Source: a virus (taxonomy: Duplodnaviria; Caudoviricetes). Taken from it: a stretch of 64,000 bases of DNA. Shown here in pieces: positions 10,017 through 53,816 of the stretch. The position numbers were made by a program, and so were the translations under genes. The stretch covers positions 14,282 through 78,281 of the IMG/VR virus record IMGVR_UViG_2850949226_000003; one strand, written 5' to 3'. The first letter of the stretch is position 1. Every line of letters starts with the position of its first letter. The notes under the pieces are model-generated. The model was not told where the DNA came from. It saw only the letters and a program-made list of their open reading frames with translations, and made no database searches.

Positions 10017-10763
10017 ATGTTCTTTTTGCATGATATTTGGATTAACTGGATCGAGGGAGCGATTAAAGGGTATCAAGTACCAGAATTCTTCGAATGGCAC
10101 GCTAGTGATGATGTTACTCTTATGGATGTTATACCATTAATAAAAGTTGAGGAAGGGTTCTTCGATTACGTTGAAGATGGGATTAACGAATTGCCGTCTG
10201 ATCTTATGCAATTAGTGAAAAACAGTGCTTGTATGTACAAAAAGAATGAGAAGGTCAATATGAGCGCGTTCGTCATAACAGATGGCAGGAGGATTTTAGC
10301 TGTCGATCCTGTAGATTCGAATTCTCCTTCCAAGAAGAGCAGACTAACTCTTCGTCATGAGCGGAAGATTTTGGAGATGGTCGAAGGAGTAGAGCCTTTG
10401 AAGTTTGAGTACACCCCACTTCCTGAAGGTGATTTTGATTTCTTCAATGCCCCCGAACAGTTTATGTATGGTTTGACGAGGACCGAAAGAGAAGTGAAAT
10501 CTTTGATCTTTGAAGGATTAATTTTAATGTATCCTGATGAGGATATCGCTAAATTAAGATACCTGTATCATGAGTGGGATTATAACAGTATAGATTCGAT
10601 TAATGATTTAGAATTCAAAGACTTAATGGTTAGGTTATTATCGGAGGTTTCAATTGGTTTTCACCAAGGTCATAAAGACCTTGCTAAAGCGATTGCTAAT
10701 ACAGATGATATAATAAATTCAAAGTACAAATATATCATTGAAAGGAAGAACATGATTGGCTAG
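10017..10763 (+). CDS. yjbA: YjbA/MdfA (DUF3603) homologue
   Basis: MFFLHDIWINWIEG, FVITDGRRILAVD, KKSRL, GLTRTERE and YHEW match B. subtilis YjbA as I recall it (MLFLHDVWVNWFEG, FVVTDGIGILAVD, RKSRL, GLTRKERQ, YTEW) over the full length. Confidence 0.8.
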   Translation: MFFLHDIWINWIEGAIKGYQVPEFFEWHASDDVTLMDVIPLIKVEEGFFDYVEDGINELPSDLMQLVKNSACMYKKNEKVNMSAFVITDGRRILAVDPVDSNSPSKKSRLTLRHERKILEMVEGVEPLKFEYTPLPEGDFDFFNAPEQFMYGLTRTEREVKSLIFEGLILMYPDEDIAKLRYLYHEWDYNSIDSINDLEFKDLMVRLLSEVSIGFHQGHKDLAKAIANTDDIINSKYKYIIERKNMIG

Positions 10764-11178
10764 GAAAAGTTGGGATCAATATTTTATGGAGCAAGCAGAA
10801 CTTGTCTCTACCCGCGCGACTTGCGACAGGTTGAAGGTTGGTGCTGTTCTAGTTAAAGATAACAGGATAATTGCTACGGGTTATAACGGTTCTATTTCTG
10901 GTACTGCTCACTGCGATGACGTAGGCCATCTTATGTACGAGAATGGTTGTAAAAGGACAATACATGCGGAGTTTAATGCTATTTTACAATGTGCGAAATA
11001 TGGTGTTGCCGTAGATGGCGCCACGGCTTATGTAACTCATTATCCATGCCCGTCTTGTATGCAAGCTTTAAATCAGGCTGGCATCAAGAGAGTGGTTTAT
11101 AGGTATTTCTATAAGCATAGATACGAAAACGATTTTGATCAAGGGATGGAAGTGGTTCAATTTGAAGGGGATAATTAG
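10756..11178 (+). CDS. dCMP deaminase (ComEB-like)
   Basis: RATCDRLKVGAVLV, TGYNG, HAEFNAI and PCPSC zinc motifs. Confidence 0.9.
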   Translation: MARKSWDQYFMEQAELVSTRATCDRLKVGAVLVKDNRIIATGYNGSISGTAHCDDVGHLMYENGCKRTIHAEFNAILQCAKYGVAVDGATAYVTHYPCPSCMQALNQAGIKRVVYRYFYKHRYENDFDQGMEVVQFEGDN

Positions 11179-11431
11179 AAGAGTCGATGTTTTAGGTAGG
11201 ATTGTATTACCGAAGGCTTTTAGAGAAGCTTGTGGTATTAATTCAGGAGACGAAGTTGAAATCGTTATGAAGGGGAACGGTATTTATCTTCAAAAACACA
11301 ACAGATACGCTAGGTGTGCTATGACGGGGGAAGTTACAGAAGATATCAAGGTATACGGGAACGGAATTTTTTTGAGTCGAAAAGGGCGTGAACAATTATT
11401 GGAGGATTTAAAAAGAGAAGGGGATTCTTGA
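11162..11431 (+). CDS. AbrB/Abh-family transition-state regulator
   Basis: KGIIRRVDVLGRIVLPK...CAMTGEV...LSRKG. Start placed at TTG 11162. Confidence 0.85.
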   Translation: MKGIIRRVDVLGRIVLPKAFREACGINSGDEVEIVMKGNGIYLQKHNRYARCAMTGEVTEDIKVYGNGIFLSRKGREQLLEDLKREGDS

Positions 11432-11456
11432 GAAGCAACCTTTAAAACTAGGTACT
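11429..11456 (+). promoter_or_regulatory. Putative phage-sigma promoter (TGAGA-N19-TACT)
   Basis: Same motif and spacing as copies at 16256, 18395, 21086 and 43646. Confidence 0.4.
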
Positions 11457-11554
11457 GTTATAACCGTATCGATTTGATTTTAACATTATATTAGTTATAA
11501 AATTAAGGTATAAAGATTTGATTTGAACTTCGTGGAAGAAATGGAGGAAACAGA

Positions 11555-11788
11555 ATGAAAGTCAGGGTTAAGGAGTTAAACGAAGATAAAGCGATCTTGG
11601 AAGTTCATACTACCAGTGGAATTAAGGAATTGGTTGTTTCAAGAACGCAATTTGGGCATTCTTATGACGACTTTTCTTCTTGGGATATTTCTGATCAGAA
11701 TTATTACGACTTAGAAGATTTGGTTGATAATGTGATAGCTCGTATGAGTGGAACCGCATCGTCGTTGGAAGTCGAATGGGAGGTTTAA
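11555..11788 (+). CDS. Phage hypothetical protein
   Basis: RBS GGAGG. Confidence 0.6.
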   Translation: MKVRVKELNEDKAILEVHTTSGIKELVVSRTQFGHSYDDFSSWDISDQNYYDLEDLVDNVIARMSGTASSLEVEWEV

Positions 11789-11790
11789 GA

Positions 11791-11988
11791 ATGAAAATTA
11801 TTTCGAGAAAAGAAATGAATGCCGCTGATTTTGCTTCCGAATTGTTTGGGGTTATTCCTATAGGTCAAGCTAAAGAAATTTATCGGAATATTGAACATTA
11901 TACAGAGGCTAAGAAAAACATCATTATTGACCTCTTGAGGGCAAACCCAAGAAAATACATTGCGGCTTTATTAAAATATGACGACTAA
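11791..11988 (+). CDS. Phage hypothetical protein
   Basis: ATG 11791 after GGGAGG; same frame as track ORF 11776..11988. Confidence 0.55.
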   Translation: MKIISRKEMNAADFASELFGVIPIGQAKEIYRNIEHYTEAKKNIIIDLLRANPRKYIAALLKYDD

Positions 11989-12196
11989 AACATTCGATGA
12001 CTTATATGCCGGGGTATATCTGGATGTGGTTCATGACAAGGATTATATCTATTCCTCCGGCTTTGTTGGTTTTTGTAAGGTTTGCAATCGGTTAACCCGT
12101 TGGACATCGATCCTATATGGGTGCTACGCATGTAGTGAGGAATGTATAAGGCATCTCGATAGGAGTGGGTATTTTGATTTCATGGAAAGTGATTAG
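11978..12196 (+). CDS. Small Cys-rich (Zn-finger-like) protein
   Basis: CKVC...CSEEC motif; overlaps neighbours. Confidence 0.55.
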   Translation: MTTKTFDDLYAGVYLDVVHDKDYIYSSGFVGFCKVCNRLTRWTSILYGCYACSEECIRHLDRSGYFDFMESD

Positions 12197-12575
12197 GGAT
12201 GATGCTGTTGTATTCGAGGGACCTATTGAACTTGCAGTATTGCACTTGAAACAATTTGGAGAGAAATTCAAACTAAAAGTCTTTATAAAAGAAATGGAGA
12301 TATATGTTGTTGATTCGAAAGTCGAAGTAAGCAGATCAGAGCTTATAAAACAAGGTATGAAGAGAAAACAAATAGAAAAATTCAGGAAGTACAAGGGTTT
12401 CGTTAACGACCCCGGTTATAAATTCTGTACCCATTGCAAATTGAGCAAACCCTTAGATGCTTTTGGTTTCAGGTCTAATAGCGAAGACGGCAGAGCAAGG
12501 CAATGCCGCGAGTGCGTGAATAAAAAGGCAAAGAAGTATAGGAATCGCAGAACGAGGAAGGAAGAAGAAAAGTGA
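12189..12575 (+). CDS. Protein with C-terminal CxxC...CxxC Zn finger
   Basis: KFCTHCKLSKPLDAF...DGRARQCREC, a treble-clef-like motif common in phage DNA-binding/endonuclease proteins. Start uncertain. Confidence 0.6.
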   Translation: MIRDDAVVFEGPIELAVLHLKQFGEKFKLKVFIKEMEIYVVDSKVEVSRSELIKQGMKRKQIEKFRKYKGFVNDPGYKFCTHCKLSKPLDAFGFRSNSEDGRARQCRECVNKKAKKYRNRRTRKEEEK

Positions 12576-12883
12576 AATTGCAGAATGTATTGGAAAAGTT
12601 TAAACAGCAGGGAAATTATGCAGTGTCTCTTTTTTATGGTGAAGGTATGGGGTGCGACGATTTAGGTGTTCCGCAAGAAGAGAGAAAGATTCAAATAGTC
12701 ATGCACCCGGTTGGATATTTAGGTGGTGTCAGGAAGTTGGTTGTAACTAATTTGAAGGAATTAGAGGATTTTGATTTTGAGCAAAAACCTAAAGTTATCA
12801 GTAACCCACCGGAAACCCATGAGTATTCAGAAAATGGAGTTTATATTTGGGGAACAGAAGAGGCGATTAAAAAGTTTGTTTAA
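12572..12883 (+). CDS. Phage hypothetical protein
   Basis: GTGA overlap with upstream gene. Confidence 0.6.
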   Translation: MKLQNVLEKFKQQGNYAVSLFYGEGMGCDDLGVPQEERKIQIVMHPVGYLGGVRKLVVTNLKELEDFDFEQKPKVISNPPETHEYSENGVYIWGTEEAIKKFV

Positions 12884-12982
12884 CGATCGATGTATAGCTT
12901 CGAGGACGCCTTCGCCAACACAACCGTTTGATCTTTGATTGGTCAAGGCGTTCAGTTAGTAGTGATAAAAGGAGGATGCCTT

Positions 12983-13765
12983 GTGGGTGATAAGGTAATC
13001 AGAGCTTCGGACAATGAAGAAGTAAAATATGACATTATCGATTTTAAGAAACTCACAACGGTCATGAAAAGGTTTTTGGGTAGCAAAAAATCTGATCCGG
13101 AAGTAACGAAGTGGTATAAGGTAGAAGATGGTCTTCATTTTATGGCGACAACATTAGGGTCTGCGGTTTACATTCTTTTCAAAAACAAATATGCCGGTAC
13201 TTTTAATAAAGCGACTGGAAAAGACTTCTTTGTGAAACCTTTATCTAACGGAAAACAAGAGGAAGTTGAAGCCATCCCTGAATTAGAAATTGTTACTGAA
13301 GGAAAGAAAAAAATTGAAAGACCTACAGGAAGGACACTTGAATATCCTGATGTAGTTGGTCTGTTTAATAGTTTTAATTTTAATGATTTTCATAAAGTTG
13401 AAATAGATGTAGATGACACTGATGATTTTATTTCGGTTCATGAAGCGATGTCGAAAGCATCGAAGGTAGGCGGACCGCATAATACAGCCAAGATGAAAAT
13501 TGAGAGTAATGAGCTATTATTAAAACTTCATGATTCTCCGATTGATTTTGAATTCAAATACAAAATAAAAAGTGATAATCGATTTTGTTTTGGGGATTAT
13601 CATTATGATTTTGATTTAATGACAGCAATATTCAAATCGTTAAAGGACCTAAAACCTTACAAAATCGAAATGTATGTAAGAGATATTGACCATCCCATCC
13701 TATTTGTCGGTGAATCAACTGACTATAACTTTAACTTTGCAATTCAAAGGATATTAGTTAGATAG
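12983..13765 (+). CDS. Beta-sliding-clamp-like protein (two domains only)
   Basis: GTG after AAGGAGG. LHFMAT, EYPDV, KMKIESNELLL and IEMYVRDIDHPILF...FNFAIQRI parallel DnaN domains II-III. Confidence 0.5.
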   Translation: MGDKVIRASDNEEVKYDIIDFKKLTTVMKRFLGSKKSDPEVTKWYKVEDGLHFMATTLGSAVYILFKNKYAGTFNKATGKDFFVKPLSNGKQEEVEAIPELEIVTEGKKKIERPTGRTLEYPDVVGLFNSFNFNDFHKVEIDVDDTDDFISVHEAMSKASKVGGPHNTAKMKIESNELLLKLHDSPIDFEFKYKIKSDNRFCFGDYHYDFDLMTAIFKSLKDLKPYKIEMYVRDIDHPILFVGESTDYNFNFAIQRILVR

Positions 13766-13771
13766 GAGAGT

Positions 13772-14263
13772 ATGATGAAAATGACACCGGGTGTAGGCGA
13801 TTATGTCGAAGTGTTGGGGTGTTCTTATGGCGGCAGGGACATTTTTATCGGAAAGACTGGTGAAATTGTGGAGATCAACAAAGACCGTTCGCCAGCTATA
13901 TATAAAGTGAGAGTTAGATTTGAATGGATTAATCAAGTGTGGTGGTTTAAGTCATCCGAATTGAGGGTTCTTAAAAAAGGTTTGGAAACAATCCCAACTA
14001 AGTTGAATAGTCGTTATGTGGCAAAAGCTTTTTGGATTGGCCACAAGAAAATGATGGAAGAGAAAGTGAAACAATTAGAGGAAGATTGCAAAAAGGTCGG
14101 AAGAGAAATGTTGCTTGCTCTTTGTGATGGCAGTTTCAATATAGAGGACGCTATTTATTGGCACGAACAATGCAAAGAATTATTTGAGATGTACACCGGA
14201 TACAAGGAGAAGTTAGAAAAAGCTAAAGGGGTAGTTGGTGCCGAAGATGAAAAACTCAACTAA
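13772..14263 (+). CDS. Phage protein with N-terminal SH3/KOW-like beta domain
   Basis: GVGDYVEV...IGKTGEIVEI...YKVRV; RBS AGGAG. Confidence 0.6.
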   Translation: MMKMTPGVGDYVEVLGCSYGGRDIFIGKTGEIVEINKDRSPAIYKVRVRFEWINQVWWFKSSELRVLKKGLETIPTKLNSRYVAKAFWIGHKKMMEEKVKQLEEDCKKVGREMLLALCDGSFNIEDAIYWHEQCKELFEMYTGYKEKLEKAKGVVGAEDEKLN

Positions 14264-14939
14264 GATGATGGAGCTATTCAAGAGTAAACCGATCTTTGAA
14301 GAGCTTGCGGAATTGAGGTTAAAAATCGCAACGACAGATGATTTAAAAATAAAGGGCGAATTGGAATTGTATGAAGATCGTATCCGTGAGTTCTCCGTTT
14401 CTTTATTGAAAAGGGTTAAAGCGAGAGAGAACGGGGCATTTGAAGAATTAATGAGTCTCAAGGATATGAAGAATTTTCTTCATTTTTACGCTTACCATAT
14501 CAGGGATTACCATAAATTTAGGTACAGCAAACAAAACGTTCTCCACGAAATCAGATTTCAAATATTTTACCACGTAGTAAACAATTATCGCATTTATAAT
14601 GAACCTCACGAAATCAGCCTATTAATCACAAGTATGAGGAACTGGATCAGACAGAAGGTTAGTGCCGCATTAAAAAACACATACAATCCGAAGGACGATG
14701 AGAAATTAGATCAAGTTTTTTTAGTAGGGGATGCGACGGATGATACAGAGGTTCTTGTGCGGGATCTAATTGACAGATACCTCGATAGAGAGGAAAAAAT
14801 TGTTTTTGAGTTGAAATTCTTTGAAGAGAGAGGCTTCGTGGAAATCGGAAAATTCATAGGAGCTTCGAAAGATACCGCCCAAAGAAGATACAAAAAAGCT
14901 TTAAATAAATTGAGTAAAATATTGTCGAAAGAGTTATAA
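14247..14939 (+). CDS. Sigma-70-family region 4 protein (phage sigma-like factor)
   Basis: LDREEKIVFELKFFEERGFVEIGKFIGASKDTAQRRYKKALNKL HTH; RVKARENGAFEELM resembles the region 2 lead-in. Confidence 0.7.
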   Translation: MKNSTKMMELFKSKPIFEELAELRLKIATTDDLKIKGELELYEDRIREFSVSLLKRVKARENGAFEELMSLKDMKNFLHFYAYHIRDYHKFRYSKQNVLHEIRFQIFYHVVNNYRIYNEPHEISLLITSMRNWIRQKVSAALKNTYNPKDDEKLDQVFLVGDATDDTEVLVRDLIDRYLDREEKIVFELKFFEERGFVEIGKFIGASKDTAQRRYKKALNKLSKILSKEL

Positions 14940-14952
14940 GGAGGACGTATAA

Positions 14953-15450
14953 GTGCGATTAACTAAATTGTTCGAAATACAACGTAAATTAGATAGGCGT
15001 ATTGTCGTGGAAAAGGGACTTGAGCGGCAAGACCTCTTGTGGAATAAAATATTAGCTTTGCAAGTTGAATTGGCAGAATTGGCTCAAGAAGTACAGGACG
15101 AATGGAAGTTTTGGAAAACAAACTTCAAAAGATGTTCCGGCAAAATATTAGAAGAGTATTGTGATTGTTTACATTTTGTTTTGAGCATTGGAATTGAACA
15201 TGGATTCGATAAACATGCAGATGGATTGGTAATTGACTCTATTGAATGTCCGAATATGGTGTTCCAAATCTCCGAGCTGATGCAATGCAATTGGTACTTG
15301 TACGAGGAAGGAGATGACGGAGACTACCATGAAGGTTTTGAGCTGTTTTTAGGTCTAGGAAAAATGTTGGGGTTTACGTGGGAAGAAGTGGAGAAAGCAT
15401 ACTTAGAAAAGAATAAAATCAACCACAAAAGACAAGATCAAGGATATTGA
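14953..15450 (+). CDS. Dimeric dUTPase (dUTPase_2 family)
   Basis: ALQVELAELAQE, WKFWK, LEEYCDCLHF, AYLEKNKINHKRQDQGY. Confidence 0.9.
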   Translation: MRLTKLFEIQRKLDRRIVVEKGLERQDLLWNKILALQVELAELAQEVQDEWKFWKTNFKRCSGKILEEYCDCLHFVLSIGIEHGFDKHADGLVIDSIECPNMVFQISELMQCNWYLYEEGDDGDYHEGFELFLGLGKMLGFTWEEVEKAYLEKNKINHKRQDQGY

Positions 15451-15475
15451 TAAAGATTAACCTTCTAACTTTTTA

Positions 15476-15504
15476 TTGAAAACACGTTTATATCCAGTTA
15501 TAAT
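15476..15504 (+). promoter_or_regulatory. SigA-type promoter of the rsfA-like gene
   Basis: TTGAAA-17-TATAAT. Confidence 0.7.
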
Positions 15505-15548
15505 CGGTTATAAAGTGAGTAAGACGATAAAAGGTTAGGAGGTTCTTT

Positions 15549-16193
15549 ATGTCTGAAAAGCATAACAATCTTCAGGGCGAAGTATGGACCGATGATGACG
15601 ATATTCAATTAGCTGAAACGGTGTTGAGGAGGGTTAGACAAGGAGATTCCGTAATTGATGCTTGCCGCGAGTTTGAAGAAGCCACAAAAGGCAGACGAAC
15701 ATCATCAGCTTCTAAATTCAGATGGCACACAAAATTAAAAGAACGATATGCTGGCGCTTACGAATTAGCCAGAAGGGAAGGGAAGAAAACAAGAGATTAT
15801 AAACGCCGAAAAGTAAACCAAGGCGAACGCTATCAAGATTTGTTGGAAAACGTTTTGGACAAGGATAGTGACAGAGAGATCACTATTGATGATATTTTGA
15901 TTTTAGTCAAAAAATACAAAGAACAAAGTGAAGACAAAGTTAGTGAATATGAACGTTATGAAAAAGAAACCGATAAACTCCGCAGAGAAATCGAAAAGCT
16001 CAAAAAAGAGTTGAAAGATGAACGTTTAGAAAAGAAACAAATGAAAGAAGCTTTAATTGAGGTTGATCGCAACTACAAAAAACTATTGGATGCTCTCAAA
16101 GTTCTGAAGGAAGCCGGAATTCAAATCAATGTTCCCGAACCTGAATCATTCGAATATATAGTCAATAAAGATGGTACTGTAGAAAAAATGTAA
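15549..16193 (+). CDS. RsfA/YlbO(GerR)-family transcriptional regulator
   Basis: WTDDDDIQLAETVLRRVRQG...RTSSASKFRW Myb-like N-terminus plus coiled coil. Confidence 0.85.
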   Translation: MSEKHNNLQGEVWTDDDDIQLAETVLRRVRQGDSVIDACREFEEATKGRRTSSASKFRWHTKLKERYAGAYELARREGKKTRDYKRRKVNQGERYQDLLENVLDKDSDREITIDDILILVKKYKEQSEDKVSEYERYEKETDKLRREIEKLKKELKDERLEKKQMKEALIEVDRNYKKLLDALKVLKEAGIQINVPEPESFEYIVNKDGTVEKM

Positions 16194-16211
16194 ATATACG
16201 CTCCGACGCAA

Positions 16212-16238
16212 AATCGCCTATTTTTGGGCGGTTTTTTT
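16212..16238 (+). terminator. Intrinsic terminator
   Basis: AATCGCCTA-tttt-TGGGCGGTT then T-run. Confidence 0.75.
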
Positions 16239-16255
16239 GTTTTCTTTTAAAAACA

Positions 16256-16288
16256 TGAGATCAGATACGTTTTAGAGGTACTAATGTT
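16256..16288 (+). promoter_or_regulatory. Putative phage late promoter TGAGA-N18-TACTAATGTT
   Basis: Sits just after a terminator; motif recurs at other operon starts. Confidence 0.55.
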
Positions 16289-16321
16289 TCATGAATGCAA
16301 AAGAAAAGGGAGGATATTCGG

Positions 16322-16600
16322 GTGAGTCGTATCAATAAAACCAAAGAAGATAAATTCAAAGACTCGTTAAAGTCATGGGGGCCTGAAGAAACTCGTCCTT
16401 TTATTCGTGAAAAAGAGGACCTCGTGAGAGATGCGTTTGATTATAAGAGAAAGTACGACAAAATCAAAAGAGAAAGAGATGAGGTGGCGAAAATTACAGG
16501 TGATTCTTTAGAGAACATCAATATTTGGTCATCTCGTGGATTGGAAAGTCAATCAGGACCTATAAAGGACTGGACACCGATAAAGAAGGAGGAAGAATGA
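16322..16600 (+). CDS. Phage hypothetical protein
   Basis: GTG after GGGAGG; ATGA overlap with next gene. Confidence 0.6.
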   Translation: MSRINKTKEDKFKDSLKSWGPEETRPFIREKEDLVRDAFDYKRKYDKIKRERDEVAKITGDSLENINIWSSRGLESQSGPIKDWTPIKKEEE

Positions 16601-17157
16601 TGGAATGGTTAAAATGGCAAAGTAAAATCCTTGAACAAGATGATCTGGATATCTTTGAAGTCATTGCTACTAGAGGAGCGGGGAAAACCACCTTCTCTTT
16701 AGGCTGGGTGACTAAAGACGCGGATATTTCTATTTTTATTACAAAGAATGCTTCGATGATCAGAAAAAAACTCAAAGAAAATATCAAGACTTTAGATTTT
16801 AATTTAAATGAATTTCATGTAATATCCAACTTAAAGCAATTAAGAAAGCTAAATACAAACCCTAAAAAGAATATCAGGATAGTTGTTGATGAATACTTTT
16901 ATCAGCCAGAAATCACTTTAGATTCGCTTGATCGTATCTTAGGACACAAAAAATATAAAGCTTTATTTATAGGAACAAGAAGAACAAAAGAAGACAAATT
17001 TAAAATTCCTTTTAGTAAACAATATATAGTCGATATTATTCAACTCATAAGCGATCAAGTGATTTCGCCGGCACAACTCATTGACATTCTGAATAAAGGA
17101 ATGTTGGATTTAGAGCAATTTTATATCGAATTCGGTGCTCCTTTCGAAGCGAATTAG
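16597..17157 (+). CDS. Truncated terminase-like P-loop ATPase domain
   Basis: WQSKIL...ATRGAGKTT (Walker A), IVVDE (Walker B), C-terminal EQFYIEFGAPF; no nuclease domain. Confidence 0.55.
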   Translation: MMEWLKWQSKILEQDDLDIFEVIATRGAGKTTFSLGWVTKDADISIFITKNASMIRKKLKENIKTLDFNLNEFHVISNLKQLRKLNTNPKKNIRIVVDEYFYQPEITLDSLDRILGHKKYKALFIGTRRTKEDKFKIPFSKQYIVDIIQLISDQVISPAQLIDILNKGMLDLEQFYIEFGAPFEAN

Positions 17158-17179
17158 TCATAAGGAGTTGGTATAATAG

Positions 17180-17953
17180 ATGGATTTAATTTACAAGAAA
17201 GGTACTGTCATTGGGAAGCCGGATGAATTGAGGGTATATCTTTTGAATGATCTTCATTTCGGTTCTGAAGCTGTTGATTATGAGCTTTGGGAAAGGATCA
17301 AACAAGACATTAGAGAAAATAGGCACAGGTCAAGGATTTTAATTAATGGTGATATCATCGAAGGAGTAACCAGACAATCTAAAGGCGATATCTACAAGCA
17401 ACGAATGTCACCAAAGGAACAGGTCGATTTTGCAGTTAGTGAATTTTATGAATTTCGTGATTTGATCGATGCTGTAAACAGTGGTAATCACGATCAAAGA
17501 ATCAAAAACGAAACAAGCTTTGATCCTATCGAGACGTTTTGCAAGGATTTGGGTATACTTGATAAGTACCTGGAGTATGAAGGTATAATCGCTTATAGCT
17601 GGAATAAGTGTTTTTATTCTATTCAAATGCACCACGGATCGGGTGGAGCTTCGACTACTGCTGGTATCATTAACAAAATGAAAAAGATGAGAAAATCCAA
17701 TTGTACTGTGACCTATATCGCTCATCACCACAGGGAAGTTGCTGAACCTTTTATCGAATATTACATTGACCCATTCAATCATAAGTTGCACAAACGAAAG
17801 CATTGGTTCATTTGTGGTAACACAATCACAAAACATGCGGAATACGCAAAGAAATTCGCATATGAAGAGAAATTCCCCTCCCAAGCTGTATTGTTGTTGT
17901 CGGGGAATAGGAAGAACAGGTCGGTTGAAGTTGAGTGGATAAGAAGCATGTAA
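17180..17953 (+). CDS. Calcineurin-like metallophosphoesterase
   Basis: NDLHFG, NGDIIE, SGNHD, HHG and AHHH motifs. Confidence 0.85.
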   Translation: MDLIYKKGTVIGKPDELRVYLLNDLHFGSEAVDYELWERIKQDIRENRHRSRILINGDIIEGVTRQSKGDIYKQRMSPKEQVDFAVSEFYEFRDLIDAVNSGNHDQRIKNETSFDPIETFCKDLGILDKYLEYEGIIAYSWNKCFYSIQMHHGSGGASTTAGIINKMKKMRKSNCTVTYIAHHHREVAEPFIEYYIDPFNHKLHKRKHWFICGNTITKHAEYAKKFAYEEKFPSQAVLLLSGNRKNRSVEVEWIRSM

Positions 17954-17985
17954 AGTTAGGTTATAAAGAAGGGCTAGATAAAAGA

Positions 17986-18016
17986 ACACCGTTCAAAAAA
18001 GAACGGTGCTTTTTTT
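17986..18016. terminator. Probable bidirectional terminator between convergent genes
   Basis: CACCGTTC-aaaaaa-GAACGGTG flanked by A- and T-runs. Confidence 0.7.
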
Positions 18017-18317
18017 ATTTCTCTCTTGTTCTGAAGTCACATGTCCAGTCGTGAAGTAAACCGATATCTACATAATCCTCCAAAGCCTCCACGCTGTTGC
18101 TTTCTAACTCAATCCGGTGAAGAAATACATTGCATTCGTTTCGTTGATAATTAATATGTACTTCTCCTACTTCTATTTCATATGGGTTCTTATATAAGGA
18201 ATCCGCAATGAAATCTCCCTTATGAGGTATAACATTTGATTCGAACTCTTTGTGAAGCGTTCTAAAATCTCGCATACTATCCTTCAAACAAACCTGTTGA
18301 TGAAGCCTGATTTTCAT
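18015..18317 (-). CDS. Hypothetical protein, lone reverse-strand gene
   Basis: Strong RBS AAGGAGGTG before ATG 18317 (MKIRLHQQ). Confidence 0.7.
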   Translation of the reverse strand: MKIRLHQQVCLKDSMRDFRTLHKEFESNVIPHKGDFIADSLYKNPYEIEVGEVHINYQRNECNVFLHRIELESNSVEALEDYVDIGLLHDWTCDFRTREK

Positions 18318-18394
18318 GTCCTTCACCTCCTTTTTTAGTGTTCAAACTAATTATATATTCCTTAAAACTTGAAGTATATTAAAACATTCAAAAG

Positions 18395-18428
18395 TGAGAA
18401 AATATTTCTTTTTTCTCATACTACTGTT
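18395..18428 (+). promoter_or_regulatory. Putative phage late promoter TGAGA-N17-CATACTA
   Basis: Upstream of the structured leader and terS; -10 equals the SigG consensus CATACTA. Confidence 0.55.
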
Positions 18429-18434
18429 CATGAG

Positions 18435-18770
18435 GACTTTTAGTTAAGGGATATCCAATCCTCTAACTTTCCAATATATAAGTGGAAAGTTGATATTTAA
18501 GAGAAGGAAAGGCAGTGGGGAACTGAAGCAAAGGGGCTGTCTGCTCGGATGATGTGGGTTTAAGCCGAGGGATTTAGAAGACCAAGGTCCTACCTCCTGG
18601 CATGGGTAATGTGAAAACGGATCAAAAAACGTCTCGCGGAGTCCGTTGTCGTAATAACGGATAAGGGTTGCCACCTGACAAGAGCACGGAGATAGAGACA
18701 ATGACCGCGTTTAATTGGTTTTGCGGTTAATGCCACTTGCTACGAAAAAATCGTGGCGGTGGCTTTTTTA
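18435..18770 (+). ncRNA. Candidate structured ncRNA or attenuator leader of the packaging operon
   Basis: No credible ORF; GC-richer than flanks by eye; several stems, some with G-U pairs; ends in a terminator. Confidence 0.5.
18732..18769 (+). terminator. Intrinsic terminator just upstream of terS
   Basis: GCCACTTGCTACGA-aaaaa-TCGTGGCGGTGGC-TTTTTT. Confidence 0.8.
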
Positions 18771-18795
18771 GTTTGTTGCGAAAGGAGCAATTAAC

Positions 18796-19473
18796 ATGGC
18801 AAAAAACGAGATCAAATCTTATGTTACATCTGATGGGCAAGTTTTTAAAACAACGTTAGATATAGGTGACGTTGATCCAAAATTATATACACTTAACCAT
18901 TTGGAGATGGCGGAAAAAAGAGTGATAAAAGGCAGTAACAAAAACTTAAAGACGGCTTTAGGTAGTACAAGAGCGTTAGCAAAGAAAAATCAAACTACAG
19001 CCAAATCTCTTTCTGACGCTCAATTTGATGAGTATGGACTCGATCCGTCTATTTACACCAAGAAACAAATCGATTTTGTTCACCAAAAGATCAGAGAATT
19101 CGAAGCGCAATACGAGTCTTCTACGCCTTTTGAAAAAGAGACAATTGGCATGATGGCGGTAACTTTACTAAAAATTACTGAAATTAAAGCGAAAATGATT
19201 TCATCTGATAGTAACAACTACGTGAAACAGTTAAAGGATTTACGCGAGATGTTTTCTAAAATGGCCGAAGATTTGAAGCTTAGACCAAAAGACAAGAAAG
19301 AGGAAGACAGGAGCAAGAACAGAAACTCACTTACAGAAATGGTGCGGAGATACGAAGCGCGGAAGAGAAGTCAACGCAAGGAAACTAGCGATAAAACAAA
19401 AGCAATGGAAGAGATGCTTTCTAAAGTAAGGGTAAACTCGCTGGACGGAAAATACGCCGGAGCTGAAGAATAA
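18796..19473 (+). CDS. Probable terminase small subunit
   Basis: Directly upstream of and coupled to TerL; helical, with MFSKMAEDLKLRP motif. Confidence 0.6.
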   Translation: MAKNEIKSYVTSDGQVFKTTLDIGDVDPKLYTLNHLEMAEKRVIKGSNKNLKTALGSTRALAKKNQTTAKSLSDAQFDEYGLDPSIYTKKQIDFVHQKIREFEAQYESSTPFEKETIGMMAVTLLKITEIKAKMISSDSNNYVKQLKDLREMFSKMAEDLKLRPKDKKEEDRSKNRNSLTEMVRRYEARKRSQRKETSDKTKAMEEMLSKVRVNSLDGKYAGAEE

Positions 19474-21059
19474 TGGATTGGTACAGCGAATGGATTACTG
19501 AAGAAGAAATATACGAAATAATGAACCTCCCTCATGACGAGTTTGAAGAGTACATCTTTGAAATGATCGAGTTTTATCGCGAAAATCCTGTAGAAGCTGT
19601 ATACGACCTATTAGGTCTTGGTTTAACTGAATACCAAAAAGTGATGCTAATTGAATCCTGGAATTCAAAAAACATTTATTGGTGTACAAGCCGTGGTGCT
19701 GGGAAATCATTCATGATGGCTATTCTTGCTTGTTTAAAGATGTTGCTCTATCCAGATGAAGCTATACTCATGTTCGGCCCTTCTTATCGTCAATCATTAA
19801 TGCTCTACGACAAGATCGTAAGTGAAGTTTACAATAAGTCCTTTTCTTTTAAACACGAAGTCATGGAAATGCCTAGGGGATCGATGGGTGCCAAGATTCA
19901 ACTCAAGAATTTGTCTTATGCGAAATTCTTGCCTATAGGCGACGGGGGATCAATTCGTGGTGAGCGTACAACTTTCATCTTTTTGGATGAGGACGCCCAA
20001 CAAGACAAAACGTTAATTGATCGGGTAATTTTACCGATGGCTGTATCTAACTTAAAATACGATCCTGATAATCCTGAAGAGGGATTTCAACCGACTATCG
20101 TTCGTGCCACATCTGCATACTTTCAATTCAACCATAGCTATAAGACTTTCCAAATTCATTTGCACAGAATGGCATTCGATGAGGATTACTACTGCGCTGT
20201 AGTCCCTTATACAATCCCATTGGAAGCGAAACTCTACAATGAAAAGTTCGTAGCCACACAGAAGCGGGATATGTCTAATGATGACTTTGAAATGGAAATG
20301 GGTTGCAAATGGATAACCGGCAACGAAAACGCGTTTATTAGTATGAAATTGTGGGATGAGAACGTTAAATATGACGACACGCTAGAACCCCTTTTCTGTG
20401 GCGAAGGCAATAAGGAGTATGTATTGTTTGCTGATATCGCAAGGTCGGAAGGCGGAGATAACGCATCATTAAAACTATGTGAAATTCGTGGACATCGACT
20501 CGCCGTTGTCAGAGAAAAAGCTTTAAATGGTCAGCCGTATCAAGTGATCCGAGATGAAATAAGAAAATTTCTAATTAAGTTCAATGTTATTGACCTTTGG
20601 ATGGATAAATTAGGAGGCGGTGAAGCTGTGGCCGACTTACTTGCTGAAGATTGGATGGACTTCGAAACTGGAGCTAAACACCCTCCTATTCTTTCTGTTG
20701 ACAGCGGCAGAGGGGATGGGATCAAATTAATCACATTTATTGTAGCGGATACTGCCCTTAACCACAGACTAGGACACCTGGCAAAGAAGCATATTGAAAA
20801 AGGTCACTTCGTTTTCCCAAGACTCATGGACAGACACCCGGAAAGAGAGATGGAAATGGCGTACTTAGACCTCATTATGGTCAAGAAAGAAGTAACCAAT
20901 ATACAAGCTGTGCCGGCAGGAAATTTCCATAAATTCGTGCCTACCAAGGGGTCAAAGCTTCGAAAAGACCGTTGGACAACCTTCTGTTATGCCGCGCTTT
21001 ATATCGAAGAAAAATTGATAAAAAAAGAAGAGGACGAACTATTGATTGAAATCTTCTGA
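19473..21059 (+). CDS. terL: Terminase large subunit
   Basis: SRGAGKS, IRGER..FLDE, RNase H-like ADIARS.GGD, MDKLGGG and RKDRW. Confidence 0.92.
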   Translation: MDWYSEWITEEEIYEIMNLPHDEFEEYIFEMIEFYRENPVEAVYDLLGLGLTEYQKVMLIESWNSKNIYWCTSRGAGKSFMMAILACLKMLLYPDEAILMFGPSYRQSLMLYDKIVSEVYNKSFSFKHEVMEMPRGSMGAKIQLKNLSYAKFLPIGDGGSIRGERTTFIFLDEDAQQDKTLIDRVILPMAVSNLKYDPDNPEEGFQPTIVRATSAYFQFNHSYKTFQIHLHRMAFDEDYYCAVVPYTIPLEAKLYNEKFVATQKRDMSNDDFEMEMGCKWITGNENAFISMKLWDENVKYDDTLEPLFCGEGNKEYVLFADIARSEGGDNASLKLCEIRGHRLAVVREKALNGQPYQVIRDEIRKFLIKFNVIDLWMDKLGGGEAVADLLAEDWMDFETGAKHPPILSVDSGRGDGIKLITFIVADTALNHRLGHLAKKHIEKGHFVFPRLMDRHPEREMEMAYLDLIMVKKEVTNIQAVPAGNFHKFVPTKGSKLRKDRWTTFCYAALYIEEKLIKKEEDELLIEIF

Positions 21060-21085: not shown

Positions 21086-21115
21086 TGAGAAAACAAGCAC
21101 TTTAAACCGTATAAT
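21086..21115 (+). promoter_or_regulatory. Putative promoter of portal/head operon (TGAGA-N19-TATAAT)
   Basis: Same -35 and spacing as the other copies. Confidence 0.45.
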
Positions 21116-43183: not shown

Positions 43184-43648
43184 ATGATGGCAGGAGACAT
43201 TGTTTTCGTAAATGGAAACACACCGATAAGTCGAATGGTAAAACTAATTGATGGCGGCCGTTTTTCTCACGTAGCGGTAGCTGTAAGTGAAACACATATT
43301 ATCGAAGCGCAATACTTTACCAAAGTGAGAATAACCCCTTTGAAGTACAGGGATTTTGAAGTTGTCAGCGTAAATTTGACAGACGAACAAAGGGATAGAA
43401 TAGTTCATTTGGGGATTCAACTGGTTGGAAAGTGGTATGACTATCTCCAGGTTTTTTGGTATTTCTTCAACAAATTATTAAGTTTGGATTTTAGAGGTGT
43501 TTGGAACTCGAAAAACAACCTCATATGTTCAGAACTTGTGGACAGACTTCTATCTCAAGTCGGTTACATTCCAGAGAATCTATTCTTGGGGGATGTAACC
43601 CCTTCTGAACTGTATGAATACCTCAAAAAAATAGACCTTCGAAAATGA
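43184..43648 (+). CDS. Permuted papain-like amidase (YaeF/YiiX, C92)
   Basis: GDIVF, FSHVAV, GKWYD and ICSEL motifs. Confidence 0.8.
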   Translation: MMAGDIVFVNGNTPISRMVKLIDGGRFSHVAVAVSETHIIEAQYFTKVRITPLKYRDFEVVSVNLTDEQRDRIVHLGIQLVGKWYDYLQVFWYFFNKLLSLDFRGVWNSKNNLICSELVDRLLSQVGYIPENLFLGDVTPSELYEYLKKIDLRK

Positions 43649-43679
43649 GAAATCGCTCCAAAGAAATCATACTAATGTT
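43646..43679 (+). promoter_or_regulatory. Putative lysis-operon promoter TGAGA-N17-CATACTAATGTT
   Basis: Closely matches copies at 16256 and 18395. Confidence 0.55.
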
Positions 43680-49958: not shown

Positions 49959-49973
49959 TAGCTCTACCTCCGA

Positions 49974-50990: not shown

Positions 50991-51166
50991 ACCTCCTTGT
51001 CATAATGTCCTTCATCTATCTGCTTTTTCAGTTCTTTAACAGTAATTAAACAGCCCAAGAGCATATCTTTTTTATTAGGTCTGTTTAAGATCAGAGGATT
51101 TCTTAGGTCACTTTCTAAAGTGACGATCATTTTGGTTAACCTTTTCAGAAATTTATCCTTGTTCAT
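50987..51166 (-). CDS. Small hypothetical protein (59 aa)
   Basis: Manual: MNKDKFLKRL...DEGHYDKEV; RBS GGGGAG; stop overlaps primase start. Confidence 0.65.
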   Translation of the reverse strand: MNKDKFLKRLTKMIVTLESDLRNPLILNRPNKKDMLLGCLITVKELKKQIDEGHYDKEV

Positions 51167-51221
51167 AAATGTTATGACTCCCCTTTATAACCGTTGCGTA
51201 ACGGAAAGGATTGTTTTAGTA

Positions 51222-52562
51222 TTACAACTCCCTTATCCGATGAATTTCCTGTTTGAAATCAAATTCCACTCGTTTCCCAACATCCCTCGCTTTTACTTTC
51301 CGCCCCATAATAAGCTCTATATAATGGGTTCCAAATTGTTCTGGATCAGTAGGATCACGGTGATCGAGTCGGCAAATGACATCAGCCAGTTTTGTGAAAT
51401 GAGATGTTTCCGCGAATTTATGTTTTCCATCGGTTACATGCAGGTGATACATTTGACCGGATGTAATAACAGGAATATCGCATTGTTTCGCGATTTTCTC
51501 TTTCAAGGTATCGATTTTTGAAGCCATGATCATATCCAATCGACCTTTTTCAGCTTCGTGAGATTGAATCTTTACATAATCATAAATGAAAAGTCCGATT
51601 CCGTGTTTAAGCTGAAGGAGTTTGACTTTGCTCTCAAGCTCATTATTGGTCAGTTCGTTAGCATTGAAGTGATAAAAAGGAACTTGTTCTATGCGTTTCC
51701 AAGCTTCTTCGACTCTTTGTTCTTCTTCGGGGGTGAGGGTATCATCAGAAATTTTGTCTTCCTCAACTCCTGATATCTTGCTACAGATACGAATTAATTG
51801 TTCTTCTTCGGTCATCTCTGTGTCACCATAGGCGACAGGAACTCCTAACTTATCTGCTATGTTCCATCCTAAATCAGTCATCCAAGTGGATTTACCGACT
51901 TTTTCGGGGGCACCAAATACATAAAGAGCTTTATTTCTTAACCTTTTGATTAAAGCGTTTGTTTTTGGATATAGAAAACTTATATCGATACCACGAAATT
52001 CTTTGCTCTTGATTGACTCCTTAACTTTTGAAACACTCTTGCCGATTTGTTGGACATCATCATCCATATTTAAGTTGTCTGCAAGGCTATATGTCATTTC
52101 TTTGATACGATTATCCAACTCTTCTACGTCGGCGAACTGTCTGTTCATTTCGTGATCTATATTGGTTTCAGCAGACTGTTTGATCTTTTCGGCAATATTT
52201 ACCGCGTTCCTTCGATAAGCTAAACTTTTAATTACGGCTACTTGATCCTTAACAGCGGGGGATTTCGGTAACGAGAAGTCTCGAAGTTCTGCTTCAATAG
52301 TCGGCGCTCCACCTATCCCTTGTAGAACAGAAAAAGCTTCTCTGTTCTCCGTTTCCAGAAAGGTCATAATCCCTTCTGCTGTTACATCACCTTTTAGCGA
52401 TAGATGTTTAATAGCTGTGAACAAATAGCGGAATGGAACGAAATAAAAGTCAGATGGTTGTAAAGCTTGTGCGAGTTCGACAATAGAAGAGGGGCGGTTG
52501 TACATAACTTTTACGATGTATTTTTCAACTGACTCACTATACAATTCCGGCCCGTTACTCAT
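51222..52562 (-). CDS. DnaB-like replicative helicase
   Basis: LQPSDFY N-domain, GAPEKVGKS, DTEM, IYDYVK, PVITSGQ. Confidence 0.9.
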   Translation of the reverse strand: MSNGPELYSESVEKYIVKVMYNRPSSIVELAQALQPSDFYFVPFRYLFTAIKHLSLKGDVTAEGIMTFLETENREAFSVLQGIGGAPTIEAELRDFSLPKSPAVKDQVAVIKSLAYRRNAVNIAEKIKQSAETNIDHEMNRQFADVEELDNRIKEMTYSLADNLNMDDDVQQIGKSVSKVKESIKSKEFRGIDISFLYPKTNALIKRLRNKALYVFGAPEKVGKSTWMTDLGWNIADKLGVPVAYGDTEMTEEEQLIRICSKISGVEEDKISDDTLTPEEEQRVEEAWKRIEQVPFYHFNANELTNNELESKVKLLQLKHGIGLFIYDYVKIQSHEAEKGRLDMIMASKIDTLKEKIAKQCDIPVITSGQMYHLHVTDGKHKFAETSHFTKLADVICRLDHRDPTDPEQFGTHYIELIMGRKVKARDVGKRVEFDFKQEIHRIREL

Positions 52563-53103
52563 TGCTTTCGTTCAACCTCCCGATGTTCATGATATACATG
52601 AGCCTTTTTATATTTCTTTCTAAATCCGAAGGGGAGTTGTTTTCTAAAGCAATATCAAATTCAGTGAAAGCCGCAAATTTAACTTCGTCATGCTTAATTC
52701 TCTCAAAAGCTTGTATAACACCTCTTTGTTTTTTCATACGTTCATATCTAATGCCATCTAGTGCAGTTATATAAACAATGATTAAATTTTCACGGCCTAC
52801 ATTTTCGATTAATTCATAAATTCCAGCAGGATCGATAATGTAGACATCGTTTTTCTCAAATTGTTGTTTCGTAGCTCCATACTCATAGCCATCAAACATC
52901 GTATAAGCCACTAAATCGCCCCGTAGAGCGTCGAATTCTTTAGGGGATACAAATATATGTCCACCCTCATTTTCGAATCTCCTAGGCCTTGTAGTGAAGC
53001 TATCGATGGATGAAAATCCATGCTCCTTTAGTTTGTTTGCAATTGTGGTTTTCCCGGTACCACTTTTACCCACGAGGCACAAAGTCTTTTTCATCAAAAT
53101 CAA
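52555..53103 (-). CDS. Guanylate kinase-like nucleotide kinase
   Basis: GKSGTGKTT, SFTTRPRR, YEYG. Confidence 0.85.
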   Translation of the reverse strand: MILMKKTLCLVGKSGTGKTTIANKLKEHGFSSIDSFTTRPRRFENEGGHIFVSPKEFDALRGDLVAYTMFDGYEYGATKQQFEKNDVYIIDPAGIYELIENVGRENLIIVYITALDGIRYERMKKQRGVIQAFERIKHDEVKFAAFTEFDIALENNSPSDLERNIKRLMYIMNIGRLNESNE

Positions 53104-53123
53104 CTTCCTTTTTCATTGTTACT

Positions 53124-53816
53124 TCATGAAGCATATTGCTCCCATAGTGGCCTAACTTTTTTGAGCAATCTTGAAACATGAACTTGTGAGATGCCAACGA
53201 TTTCTCCAATTTCTCTTTGAGTCAATCCTTCATTCATTGCTAGTTCAAGGACCGACCTAGTTCTGCCGTCTAACGTTTCCATGAACTCATTTACGATAAC
53301 GGAAGAATAATCTTCAAATGTTTTTAATGTGTCACCAAGGGTAAAGGCTGAATCCTCTGAATGACTATCATCAAAAACTTTTTTGTTTATAGATAGTGCC
53401 CGATCTCTTCCGTACCATTCCATAGCTCTTTCGACGAAACGTAGTTCAACTCCAATTTTCTCTGCAATAACTTCATTCGGTTCTTCTTCGAGGTCAAGTT
53501 TAGCGACGCTTCTCCATACCCTTTTAAAAATGCGAGGAAATTTGATCATAGATTGATCTCTTAGGTGTCTTTGAATTTCTCCGTGCATCATAGGGACTGC
53601 GTAAGTAGAGAATTTCGTGTTGAATTTTTTATTATCATAGTTTTTGTACGCCTTGACCAGACCGACGAGAGCCAGTTGTGTAATATCTTCGTATTCGTCT
53701 GAAGTATTCCCGATCTTGCTGTAATATCTTTTTGCTACATGGTGGGCCAATTTGATATTTTGCTCTATAAACTCATTTAGAGGTATACCGATTTGATCGT
53801 TATAGACTTCTTGCAT
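53124..53816 (-). CDS. SigF/SigG/SigB-type sigma factor
   Basis: NIKLAHHVAKRY, EDITQ...GLVKA, KFSTYAVPMMHGEIQRHLRD, TQREIGEIVGISQVHVSRL; ATG 53816 after GGGGG. Confidence 0.9.
   Translation of the reverse strand: MQEVYNDQIGIPLNEFIEQNIKLAHHVAKRYYSKIGNTSDEYEDITQLALVGLVKAYKNYDNKKFNTKFSTYAVPMMHGEIQRHLRDQSMIKFPRIFKRVWRSVAKLDLEEEPNEVIAEKIGVELRFVERAMEWYGRDRALSINKKVFDDSHSEDSAFTLGDTLKTFEDYSSVIVNEFMETLDGRTRSVLELAMNEGLTQREIGEIVGISQVHVSRLLKKVRPLWEQYAS

Follow-up and report, generated by a model that had tools for sequence, protein, structure and literature searches.

Why would a single bacteriophage carry homologs of four developmental regulators, and do these genes act together? The question is raised by a 64,000-nucleotide stretch of viral DNA (here called the window), which comprises bases 14282 to 78281 of a single 78,281-bp virus record, IMGVR_UViG_2850949226_000003 (Caudoviricetes). 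A preliminary description of the window recognized homologs of MdfA, AbrB, RsfA, and a SigF/G-like sigma factor and proposed that they constitute a coherent system which exploits or blocks the forespore or which runs a forespore-like cascade for the phage's own genes. The analysis described here favors a different answer, to which we assign a probability of roughly 0.6: the four genes would represent two unrelated layers, one consisting of inherited transcription genes and the other of a separately acquired accessory operon, rather than one device. The four genes are as follows.

10017 to 10763, plus strand: MdfA/YjbA (DUF3603) homolog of 248 amino acids, a candidate ClpC adaptor and the first gene of a predicted three-gene operon
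11135 to 11431, plus strand: AbrB-type regulator of 98 amino acids; an alternative in-frame TTG start at 11162 would give 89 amino acids
15549 to 16193, plus strand: RsfA/GerR-family regulator of 214 amino acids (Myb-like N terminus and coiled coil), part of the lineage core
53124 to 53846, minus strand: SigB/F/G-clade sigma factor of 240 amino acids with Sigma70_r2 and r4 domains, encoded in the replication-gene arm, with an internal ATG at 53816

All four open reading frames were located at or next to the positions first reported, with family matches far beyond chance, and the presence of four developmental-regulator homologs in one phage is thus confirmed. Two of those positions refer to internal start codons: 11162 is an internal TTG in an open reading frame that begins at 11135, and 53816 is an internal ATG in one that extends to 53846. 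The gene list was correct but incomplete, since a second sigma-like gene (14235 to 14939) had been overlooked, as had a Rap-Phr pair that straddles the window's left boundary.

For gene comparison, 112 open reading frames were called and searched by tblastn against two annotated phages, MaeS (MT362618.1) and Bacillus phage Slash (NC_022774.1). Both phages have counterparts of the window's structural and replication genes, at protein identities of 23 to 79%; terminase, portal, capsid, tape-measure, tail fiber, lysis, and replication genes are colinear, and the window terminase, portal, tape-measure, and tail fiber genes are homologous to annotated Slash genes. On this comparison, the phage is a distant relative of the ~80-kb Bacillus siphophages of the Slash/Basilisk/MaeS kind. 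An origin of the window from a bacterial chromosome was rejected on account of the single 78-kb virus record and the full structural gene set. No relative at the DNA level was found by megablast in the phage collection for positions 9000 to 17000 or 52000 to 55000.

Co-occurrence of the four families was assessed by tblastn searches of each protein against 50,697 phage records, with the accession lists compared by eye. Homologs of MdfA were found in 56 records, nearly all of them from Bacillus myophages of 138 to 166 kb, with a 6-kb partial phiNIT1 record among the matches, those of RsfA in 17 records, all from ~80-kb phages (Basilisk-like phages, Stills, and MaeS), and those of AbrB in 56 records, mostly from temperate Paenibacillus and Bacillus phages. 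No accession was common to any two of these three record sets. The sigma factor matched 170 records at an E value of ≤1e-8 and was found together with RsfA in MaeS and Stills, with AbrB in at least eight records among the matches listed (Vegas, Hayley, Vadim, Diane, Dragolir, and Emery are examples), and with MdfA in Eldridge and phiNIT1 but not in SIOphi. Homologs of MdfA and AbrB were also absent from MaeS and Slash by tblastn. The assortment of the families across phages thus came out against the coherent forespore system that had been proposed, independent assortment being part of the refuting result named in the preliminary description.

The RsfA-like gene, in contrast to the MdfA and AbrB homologs, belongs to a block that is conserved among the relatives of the phage. 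The elements of this block that accompany it are listed below.

14235 to 14939, plus strand: second, divergent sigma-like gene, in which only region 4 is recognizable in Pfam (Sigma70_r4, 28 bits)
14953 to 15450, plus strand: dUTPase_2 gene, the middle gene of a sigma-dUTPase-RsfA triad (PF08761, E value of 1.1e-43; 33% identical to Slash_26)
15476 to 15504, plus strand: near-consensus sigmaA-type promoter TTGAAA-17-TATAAT, matching 11 of 12 consensus positions, 45 nucleotides upstream of the RsfA-like gene
16210 to 16235, plus strand: terminator-like hairpin directly 3' of the RsfA-like gene

The RsfA-like protein has no Pfam match. Its best-scoring family is NCBIfam GerR (E value of 2.5e-20; 73.1 bits against a cutoff of 257), followed by the RsfA family TIGR02894 (E value of 1.1e-16; 61.4 bits against a cutoff of 126.45), which it matches over the N-terminal 72 residues only, and YlbO (39 bits against a cutoff of 345); it also matches PHROG 16084, labeled "transcriptional regulator" (E value of 2.9e-26). 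By these scores the protein is homologous to the RsfA family but is not an equivalog of any host paralog. It is 47% identical to the MaeS homolog by tblastn, and pairwise BLASTP recovered a homolog missed by tblastn, Slash_27, in the same syntenic place (30% identity; E value of 4e-11). A scan of IMG/VR for RsfA returned one 9.4-kb contig at 70% identity, which begins at the RsfA gene and so lacks the upstream context. The second sigma-like gene matches the PHROG 1740 sigma factor family (E value of 1.1e-18) and is 44% identical to its MaeS counterpart and 41% identical to Slash_25, annotated as an ECF sigma factor. In Slash, the order of ECF-type sigma factor (Slash_25), pyrophosphohydrolase (Slash_26), "transcriptional regulator" (Slash_27), exonuclease, and terminase is the order found at positions 14235 to 17953 of the window, and the adjacency of sigma, dUTPase, and RsfA has been described in Basilisk-like phages (PMC6145125). 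The block in the Basilisk-like phages and in cluster J (Slash, Staley, and Stills) thus has the same order and homologous proteins ahead of the exonuclease, terminase, and structural genes, although the window proteins are only 30 to 47% identical to theirs. Because its position is conserved across MaeS, Slash, and Basilisk-like phages, recent capture of the RsfA-like gene from a host was rejected. The gene looks like a self-contained unit with a predicted promoter and terminator-like hairpin of its own; promoter-like sites in the scanned region numbered 28 against 30.2 in shuffled sequences, so the promoter site is suggestive only. Two short minus-strand open reading frames without a Pfam match lie between the exonuclease gene and terS (18431 to 18796).

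The sigma factor in the replication-gene arm is a second lineage-conserved component, being 39% identical to its MaeS homolog and 40 to 42% identical to Slash_99. Its best NCBIfam family is the SigB/F/G subfamily TIGR02980 (E value of 2.9e-42; 144.9 bits against a cutoff of 234.35), and the only cutoff that it exceeds is that of the general sigma-70 family TIGR02937 (90.4 bits against 42.9). It falls below the cutoffs of the sporulation equivalogs (113.2 bits against 321.45 for SigF; 96.1 against 372 and 84.2 against 457 for SigG), with roughly equal scores for SigF (113 bits), SigG (96 bits), and SigB (93 bits). A consensus match to a strong sigmaA-type promoter lies on the same strand.

54952 to 54980, minus strand: strong sigmaA-type promoter TTGATA-17-TATAAT, ~1.1 kb upstream of the sigma gene; consensus match only

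How SigF-like a phage sigma factor is bears on what it may do to the host. In the work of Schwartz et al. (bioRxiv 10.1101/2021.11.12.468384; mSphere 2022), phage sigma factors depressed spore yield less the more distant they were from host SigF/G: ELDg169 gave a 99% reduction, ELDg168 a marginal effect, and SP10 g120 none. Against the SigF equivalog model (TIGR02885), we obtained 273.6 bits for ELDg169, 187 for Slash_99, 143 for MaeS, 134.5 for ELDg168, 113 for the window sigma factor, 75 for Slash_67, and 70.2 for SP10 g120. The window sigma factor is far less SigF-like than ELDg169 (113 versus 274 bits) and stands between ELDg168 and SP10 g120, and by this measure it would be a weak candidate for driving host sporulation genes. 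It is also a stand-alone protein of 240 amino acids, unlike its SigF-like homologs with long C-terminal extensions, namely, Slash_99 (598 amino acids), the MaeS protein (480 amino acids), and ELDg169 of Eldridge (506 amino acids), which lie at 29751 to 31547, 16335 to 17777, and 1651 to 3171, respectively, of the stretches compared. Multiple sigma genes are typical of Bacillus phages (Schwartz et al., bioRxiv 10.1101/2021.11.12.468384), and the phage resembles those that they describe in combining, in a phage of a spore former, a SigB/F/G-clade sigma factor with a second, more divergent one.

A candidate late-promoter motif, TGAGA-N17-20-TACTAAT, occurs three times in the window, all on the late strand, against 0.04 ± 0.20 occurrences in the background of 100 dinucleotide-preserving shuffles. 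These sites and a weaker variant are as follows.

16256 to 16285, plus strand: candidate late promoter TGAGA-N18-TACTAAT, the first after the RsfA-like gene
21086 to 21115, plus strand: weaker candidate late promoter TGAGA-N19-TATAAT, 31 nucleotides upstream of the portal gene
35536 to 35566, plus strand: candidate late promoter within the 3'-terminal part of the tape-measure gene; the orthologous site in Slash ends at 36009
43646 to 43676, plus strand: candidate late promoter upstream of the holin/lysin cassette; the Slash site ends at 42494, ahead of the lysis cassette

In Slash, sites of the form (T)GAGA-N18/19-TA(T/C)TAAT stand upstream of the portal gene (as TGAGA-N-TATTAAT), in the 3'-terminal part of the tape-measure gene, and before the lysis cassette, with two more before other late genes. 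The occupation of the same three places in Slash therefore provides independent support for the motif. A relaxed late-promoter pattern was not significant (8 sites versus 5.0 ± 2.2 in shuffles), and TGAGA-N-TAYWAT was found at 1 site versus 0.89 expected. We conclude that the lineage of Slash and the window phage is likely to possess its own late promoters with a non-sigmaA motif, as predicted from sequence. The suggestion of a sigma cascade for the phage's own genes thus receives partial support, from the lineage conservation of the sigma and RsfA-like genes and from the Slash-like positions of the late motif.

Sporulation-type promoters present a different picture. Genome-wide, there were 0 sites of the sigmaF type versus 0.2 to 0.7 expected and 3 of the sigmaG type, all inside genes, versus 2.4 ± 1.5 expected, and the canonical sigmaB promoter pattern was not enriched. 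A loose sigmaA pattern was enriched (14 sites versus 4.8 ± 2.3).

Enrichment of k-mers in upstream regions also revealed that GTTATAA and the inverted TTATAAC recur around sigmaA-like promoters, often as pairs ~20 to 27 nucleotides apart (examples are at 9941 to 9975, 11457 to 11500, and 15490 to 15513 and, on the minus strand, at 54952 to 54980 and 59551 to 59600). The sequence GTTATAAA is present in eight upstream regions. The GTTATAA-type elements may be an operator or part of a promoter.

From the gene order, the presence and absence of genes, and the motifs, we infer the following timing of expression and pairing of sigma factors with promoters. The SigB/F/G-clade sigma factor, the second sigma factor, and the RsfA-family regulator would constitute an inherited transcription apparatus of the phage itself. 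Under host sigmaA, both sigma factors and the RsfA-like protein would be produced early, and one or both phage sigma factors, possibly with the RsfA-like protein, would then read the TGAGA-N18/19-TA(C/T)TAAT late promoters.

The second layer would be formed by the MdfA-like and AbrB-like genes, which bracket a dCMP deaminase gene and have no counterpart in the relatives compared. The elements surrounding them are listed below.

9917 to 9940, plus strand: hairpin and T-run upstream of the MdfA-like gene
9958 to 9986, plus strand: sigmaA-like promoter TTGAAT-17-TAATAT upstream of the MdfA-like gene; consensus match only
10003 to 10009, plus strand: ribosome-binding site AGGGAGG upstream of the MdfA-like gene
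10756 to 11178, plus strand: dCMP deaminase gene overlapping the end of the MdfA-like gene and the beginning of the AbrB-like gene; 51% identity with the enzyme annotated in MaeS

The three genes appear to be one overlapping operon behind a sigmaA-type promoter. In MaeS, the dCMP deaminase gene is located elsewhere in the genome.

The AbrB-like protein has both domains of its family. The N-terminal swapped-hairpin domain exceeds the cutoffs of PF04014 (42.6 bits against 24.7) and TIGR01439 (39.6 bits against 28.3), and the C-terminal domain matches AbrB_C (PF18277; 43.1 bits against a cutoff of 22.8) and PDB entry 2mjg (E value of 0.0036). The protein also matches the N domains of AbrB, Abh, and SpoVT in PDB, and it scores below the cutoff of the SpoVT equivalog (34 bits against 235.9). 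The gene belongs to PHROG 4681, a family that PHROG and many phage records label "antitoxin."

The MdfA-like protein matches PF12227 (DUF3603) with an E value of 1e-39 (136.6 bits against a cutoff of 23.7) over profile positions 1 to 198 of 214, and its residues 1 to 220 match PDB entry 8b3s_A, which is YjbA (MdfA), with an E value of 1e-43. In B. subtilis, charge-swap mutagenesis has shown that ClpC residues K12, K85, and H79 are contacted by MdfA residues E161, E116, and E53, respectively (Massoni et al., 10.1101/2024.03.02.583065). A HMMER alignment to 8b3s_A places phage residues E157, E115, and E53 at these three positions, where glutamate is kept in 49/49, 35/49, and 36/49 aligned homologs, respectively; the MdfA homologs of Eldridge and phiNIT1 retain two of the three. 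Like B. subtilis MdfA (PDB 8B3S), the phage protein thus has a full-length DUF3603 with both domains and all three ClpC-contact glutamates, and their retention makes it a candidate phage ClpC adaptor. Unlike B. subtilis MdfA, it is phage borne, has a sigmaA-like promoter, and is predicted to be cotranscribed with a dCMP deaminase gene. With a sigmaA-like promoter upstream and no sigmaF-type site in the genome, sigmaF-dependent forespore expression of the gene is not predicted from the sequence.

The MdfA-like protein is 31 to 38% identical to 80 chromosomal MdfA proteins, and a quick tree (the careful search was unfinished, with weak support of 81) places it on a long branch outside a compact chromosomal group. 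An exhaustive protein search returned 198 matches at an E value of ≤0.001, a scan of IMG/VR for the MdfA-like protein returned no match, and its PHROG family (7257) carries no functional annotation. Viral MdfA homologs are noted by Riley et al. (10.1101/2024.11.26.625531) in a figure legend, as "a few in viruses," and phages are nowhere mentioned in Massoni et al. (0 occurrences). No paper on phage DUF3603/YjbA proteins as ClpC adaptors was found, and supplementary files may contain more. A precedent for a phage protein acting via ClpC is SPO1 Gp53, an adaptor-like protein of ~25 kDa which binds ClpC and reprograms host ClpCP (PMC6873191). The possibility that Gp53 is a hidden relative of MdfA was rejected, as hhalign gave a probability of 0.7% and no sequence relationship was detectable. 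In SIOphi, the DUF3603 homolog is annotated as two adjacent open reading frames (2998 to 3792 of the SIOphi stretch) although tblastn finds it in one piece; the gene may be split, or there may be a sequence error.

In B. subtilis, ectopic MdfA is toxic to growing cells, and deletion of mdfA raises sigmaF/G-dependent expression ~10-fold, so that MdfA lowers sigmaF/G activity (Massoni et al., 10.1101/2024.03.02.583065). Given these effects, expression of a phage-borne homolog under a sigmaA promoter could redirect ClpCP in ordinary infected cells. From the homologies and the ClpC-contact residues, we infer that the MdfA-like protein would bind the ClpC N domain and thereby redirect host ClpCP proteolysis and that the AbrB-like protein, as a DNA-binding protein, would repress host transition-state genes, phage promoters, or both. 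The two would act separately, on vegetative or transition-state cells and not in the forespore.

The MdfA-AbrB operon is situated in a mosaic region, where it borders on a long segment without a counterpart in MaeS or Slash. This segment and the part of the record to the left of the window contain the following features.

record positions 2074 to 2958 (left of the window), minus strand: tyrosine integrase (PF00589); identities are 34% with the Slash integrase and 48% with a MaeS protein
record positions 13176 to 13334 (left of the window), minus strand: Phr-like secreted-peptide open reading frame of 52 amino acids, downstream of Rap
record positions 13288 to 14409 (5' end at window positions 1 to 128), minus strand: Rap gene of 373 amino acids (RapH_N plus TPR; PF18801, E value of 3.4e-20, and TPR_12)
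701 to 3365, plus strand: LXG polymorphic toxin of 554 amino acids (LXG plus PT-TG), followed by two Imm30 immunity genes
6538 to 7212, plus strand: poly-gamma-glutamate hydrolase, 42% identical to phiNIT1 PghP
7387 to 9141, plus strand: beta-helix protein of 584 amino acids, 34% identical to the phiNIT1 "tail spike" over 578 amino acids (E value of 2e-103)

The Rap-Phr pair, the LXG toxin, PghP, and the MdfA-AbrB operon are thus additions that distinguish the window phage from MaeS and Slash. Part of this set recurs around the DUF3603 genes of unrelated phages: a dihydrofolate reductase gene directly precedes DUF3603 in three myophages (Eldridge, SIOphi, and phiNIT1), with a "tail spike" gene and pghP nearby in SIOphi and phiNIT1 and pghP alone in Eldridge. 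DUF3603, PghP, and the beta-helix protein make up a module common to the window siphophage and unrelated Herelleviridae. These neighborhoods in the window and in the myophages suggest that the steady companions of phage MdfA genes are genes for nucleotide metabolism and exopolymer-degrading enzymes, not sporulation regulators. In chromosomes of Bacillaceae and relatives, none of the other genes was found within 10 kb of mdfA at any of 80 loci (80/80). A Pfam scan of 30 window open reading frames gave some match for 13; apart from the poly-gamma-glutamate hydrolase and the beta-helix protein, the remaining 28 included no further sporulation-type family. At the LXG toxin/Imm30 locus, contigs of a relative in public sequencing runs break or differ.

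The integrase, the Rap-Phr pair, and near-identical MdfA on megabase-scale B. licheniformis contigs point to a temperate phage resident in chromosomes of the B. licheniformis group. A 97%-identical MdfA protein heads a 90%-identity cluster whose named members, encoded on contigs of 0.6 to 4.7 Mb, come from B. licheniformis and B. sonorensis, and the host is most likely a member of the Bacillus licheniformis group. No close copy was found in species-representative genomes in a first contig scan. The lysin of the phage is an amidase with LysM. The window stretch is contained in 20 of the 24 listed sequencing runs, which represent 12 studies. Four RNA-labeled runs were examined; their contigs of 21 to 260 kb (35 to 260 kb where the stretch is present) are DNA-like, and these runs are therefore uninformative on transcription. 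In three of them, labeled RNA-Seq of an isolate and compared over window positions 1 to 20000, contigs reach 260 kb, and one contig spans 6424 to 20000 with 32 base differences, a near-identical phage thus being present as DNA in that strain. A further observation concerns MaeS, which is recorded as "Microcystis phage MaeS" (MT362618.1). It has gene order and 30 to 74% protein identity in common with Bacillus siphophages and carries RsfA-like, SigF-like, and SleB-like genes; the cyanobacterial host given for it therefore seems questionable.

How, then, does the two-layer explanation compare with its rivals? The proposal of one coherent forespore-mimicry system, which would exploit the forespore (for example, by entrapment of the phage genome in spores) or block it, has in its favor that all four homologies are real, that mdfA (Massoni et al., 10.1101/2024.03.02.583065) and rsfA (PMC6145125, citing Wu and Errington) are sigmaF linked in B. 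subtilis, and that some phage SigF/G-like sigma factors activate the sporulation network and cut spore yield (Schwartz et al.). We nevertheless consider it very unlikely. No two of MdfA, RsfA, and AbrB were found together in any of the 50,697 phage records, the relatives compared have sigma and RsfA without MdfA and AbrB, the promoters at the MdfA and RsfA-like genes are of the sigmaA type, and sigmaF- and sigmaG-type sites are not enriched. The label "forespore" is itself loose, since AbrB acts at the transition state and is not a forespore factor, and the sigma factor is among the less SigF-like phage sigma factors compared. The RsfA-like protein, for its part, is closest to GerR, a mother-cell regulator (PMC517825). 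A narrower alternative concerns the AbrB-like protein, which could be internal to the phage and have no host target, either as the antitoxin of a toxin-antitoxin pair or as a repressor of phage early promoters with GTTATAA/TTATAAC elements. The "antitoxin" labels of PHROG 4681 and many phage records, the match of the N domain to MazE_antitoxin (PF04014), and the presence of GTTATAA and its inverted copy at early promoter regions, among them the one preceding the MdfA operon and one immediately past the AbrB-like gene, are consistent with such a role. We think it improbable, as the AbrB-specific C domain (PF18277) scores above its cutoff and matches PDB 2mjg, the neighboring open reading frames that were scanned, at 11555 to 11788 and 11978 to 12196 on either side of a 70-amino-acid open reading frame (11776 to 11988), have no Pfam match, and GTTATAA overlaps -10-like TATAAT boxes and so may simply be part of a promoter.

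It is also possible that the genes, although acquired independently, converge on the host. Carriage of rap, spo0E, and abrB by phages and prophages has been proposed as a means of hijacking the onset of sporulation, and Bernard et al. (bioRxiv 10.1101/2021.07.15.452460) note a B. licheniformis prophage Rap that reportedly modulates sporulation. The window phage, an apparently temperate phage of Bacillus, likewise combines Rap-Phr with an AbrB homolog; it departs from that pattern in that its AbrB gene is ~11 kb from the quorum-sensing pair, in an operon with MdfA and dCMP deaminase genes. In such an anti-sporulation load, host sporulation would be delayed or lowered at successive levels, with the result that infected cells or lysogens stay productive. 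The level of Spo0A~P would fall through Rap-Phr, transition-state genes would stay repressed by AbrB, sigmaF/G activity and metabolism would be damped by MdfA via ClpCP, and the sigmaF/G regulon would be mistimed by the sigma factor. The hijack proposal and the prophage Rap of Bernard et al., the toxicity and sigmaF/G effects of MdfA, the phage sigma factors that lower spore yield, and the presence of Rap-Phr, AbrB, MdfA, and sigma in one genome with an integrase all speak for this possibility, to which we give limited credence. It is conjectural, a phage-internal role is simpler for sigma and RsfA genes that are conserved in the lineage beside late and replication genes, and the SigF likeness of the sigma factor is in the range for which published effects are marginal or absent. 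A more specific version appears doubtful to us as well, namely, that the MdfA homolog, expressed from a sigmaA promoter in infected or lysogenic cells, would function as a ClpC adaptor and, with the AbrB-like protein, Rap-Phr, and the sigma factor, would form a multilevel brake on host sporulation, turning ClpCP against host metabolic enzymes and regulators, as a convergent anti-dormancy load of separately acquired genes.

Several points weigh against the explanation that we prefer, that of an inherited transcription layer and a separate accessory operon. The shuffle statistic for the late motif is inflated because the pattern was chosen after the data had been inspected, and MaeS shows the motif poorly, with 0 strict sites. 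The absence of overlap between the MdfA, RsfA, and AbrB record sets is a lower bound, because tblastn missed the 30%-identical Slash_27, and the co-occurrence of the sigma factor with the other families rests on 60 of the 170 records. Independent assortment, moreover, counts against co-inheritance, yet the genes may cooperate in this one phage. Sporulation-like phage sigma factors have been found to be nonessential for lytic growth, with some of them switching on the host sporulation network (Schwartz et al., bioRxiv 10.1101/2021.11.12.468384), and the SigB/F/G-clade sigma factor may therefore target host rather than phage promoters. Finally, published work connects every one of the families with a reduction or delay of sporulation: sigma factors by Schwartz et al., Rap and AbrB by Bernard et al., and MdfA by Massoni et al.

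Sporulation-type sigma factors, Rap-Phr pairs, and AbrB and Spo0E homologs are known in phages of spore formers, and relatives of the window phage may already be included in the supplementary phage lists of Schwartz et al. or Bernard et al. Here, several of these are stacked in one genome together with an MdfA homolog, and an apparently temperate phage with a culturable host is a convenient single system in which to ask which of them alter host sporulation. The locus also illustrates that a gene list which resembles a kit can dissolve into inherited phage transcription machinery and independent add-ons. The MdfA homolog is the piece least covered in print. If the MdfA-like protein binds ClpC, the DUF3603 proteins of at least 56 Bacillus phage records would constitute a second viral ClpC adaptor family, unrelated to SPO1 Gp53.

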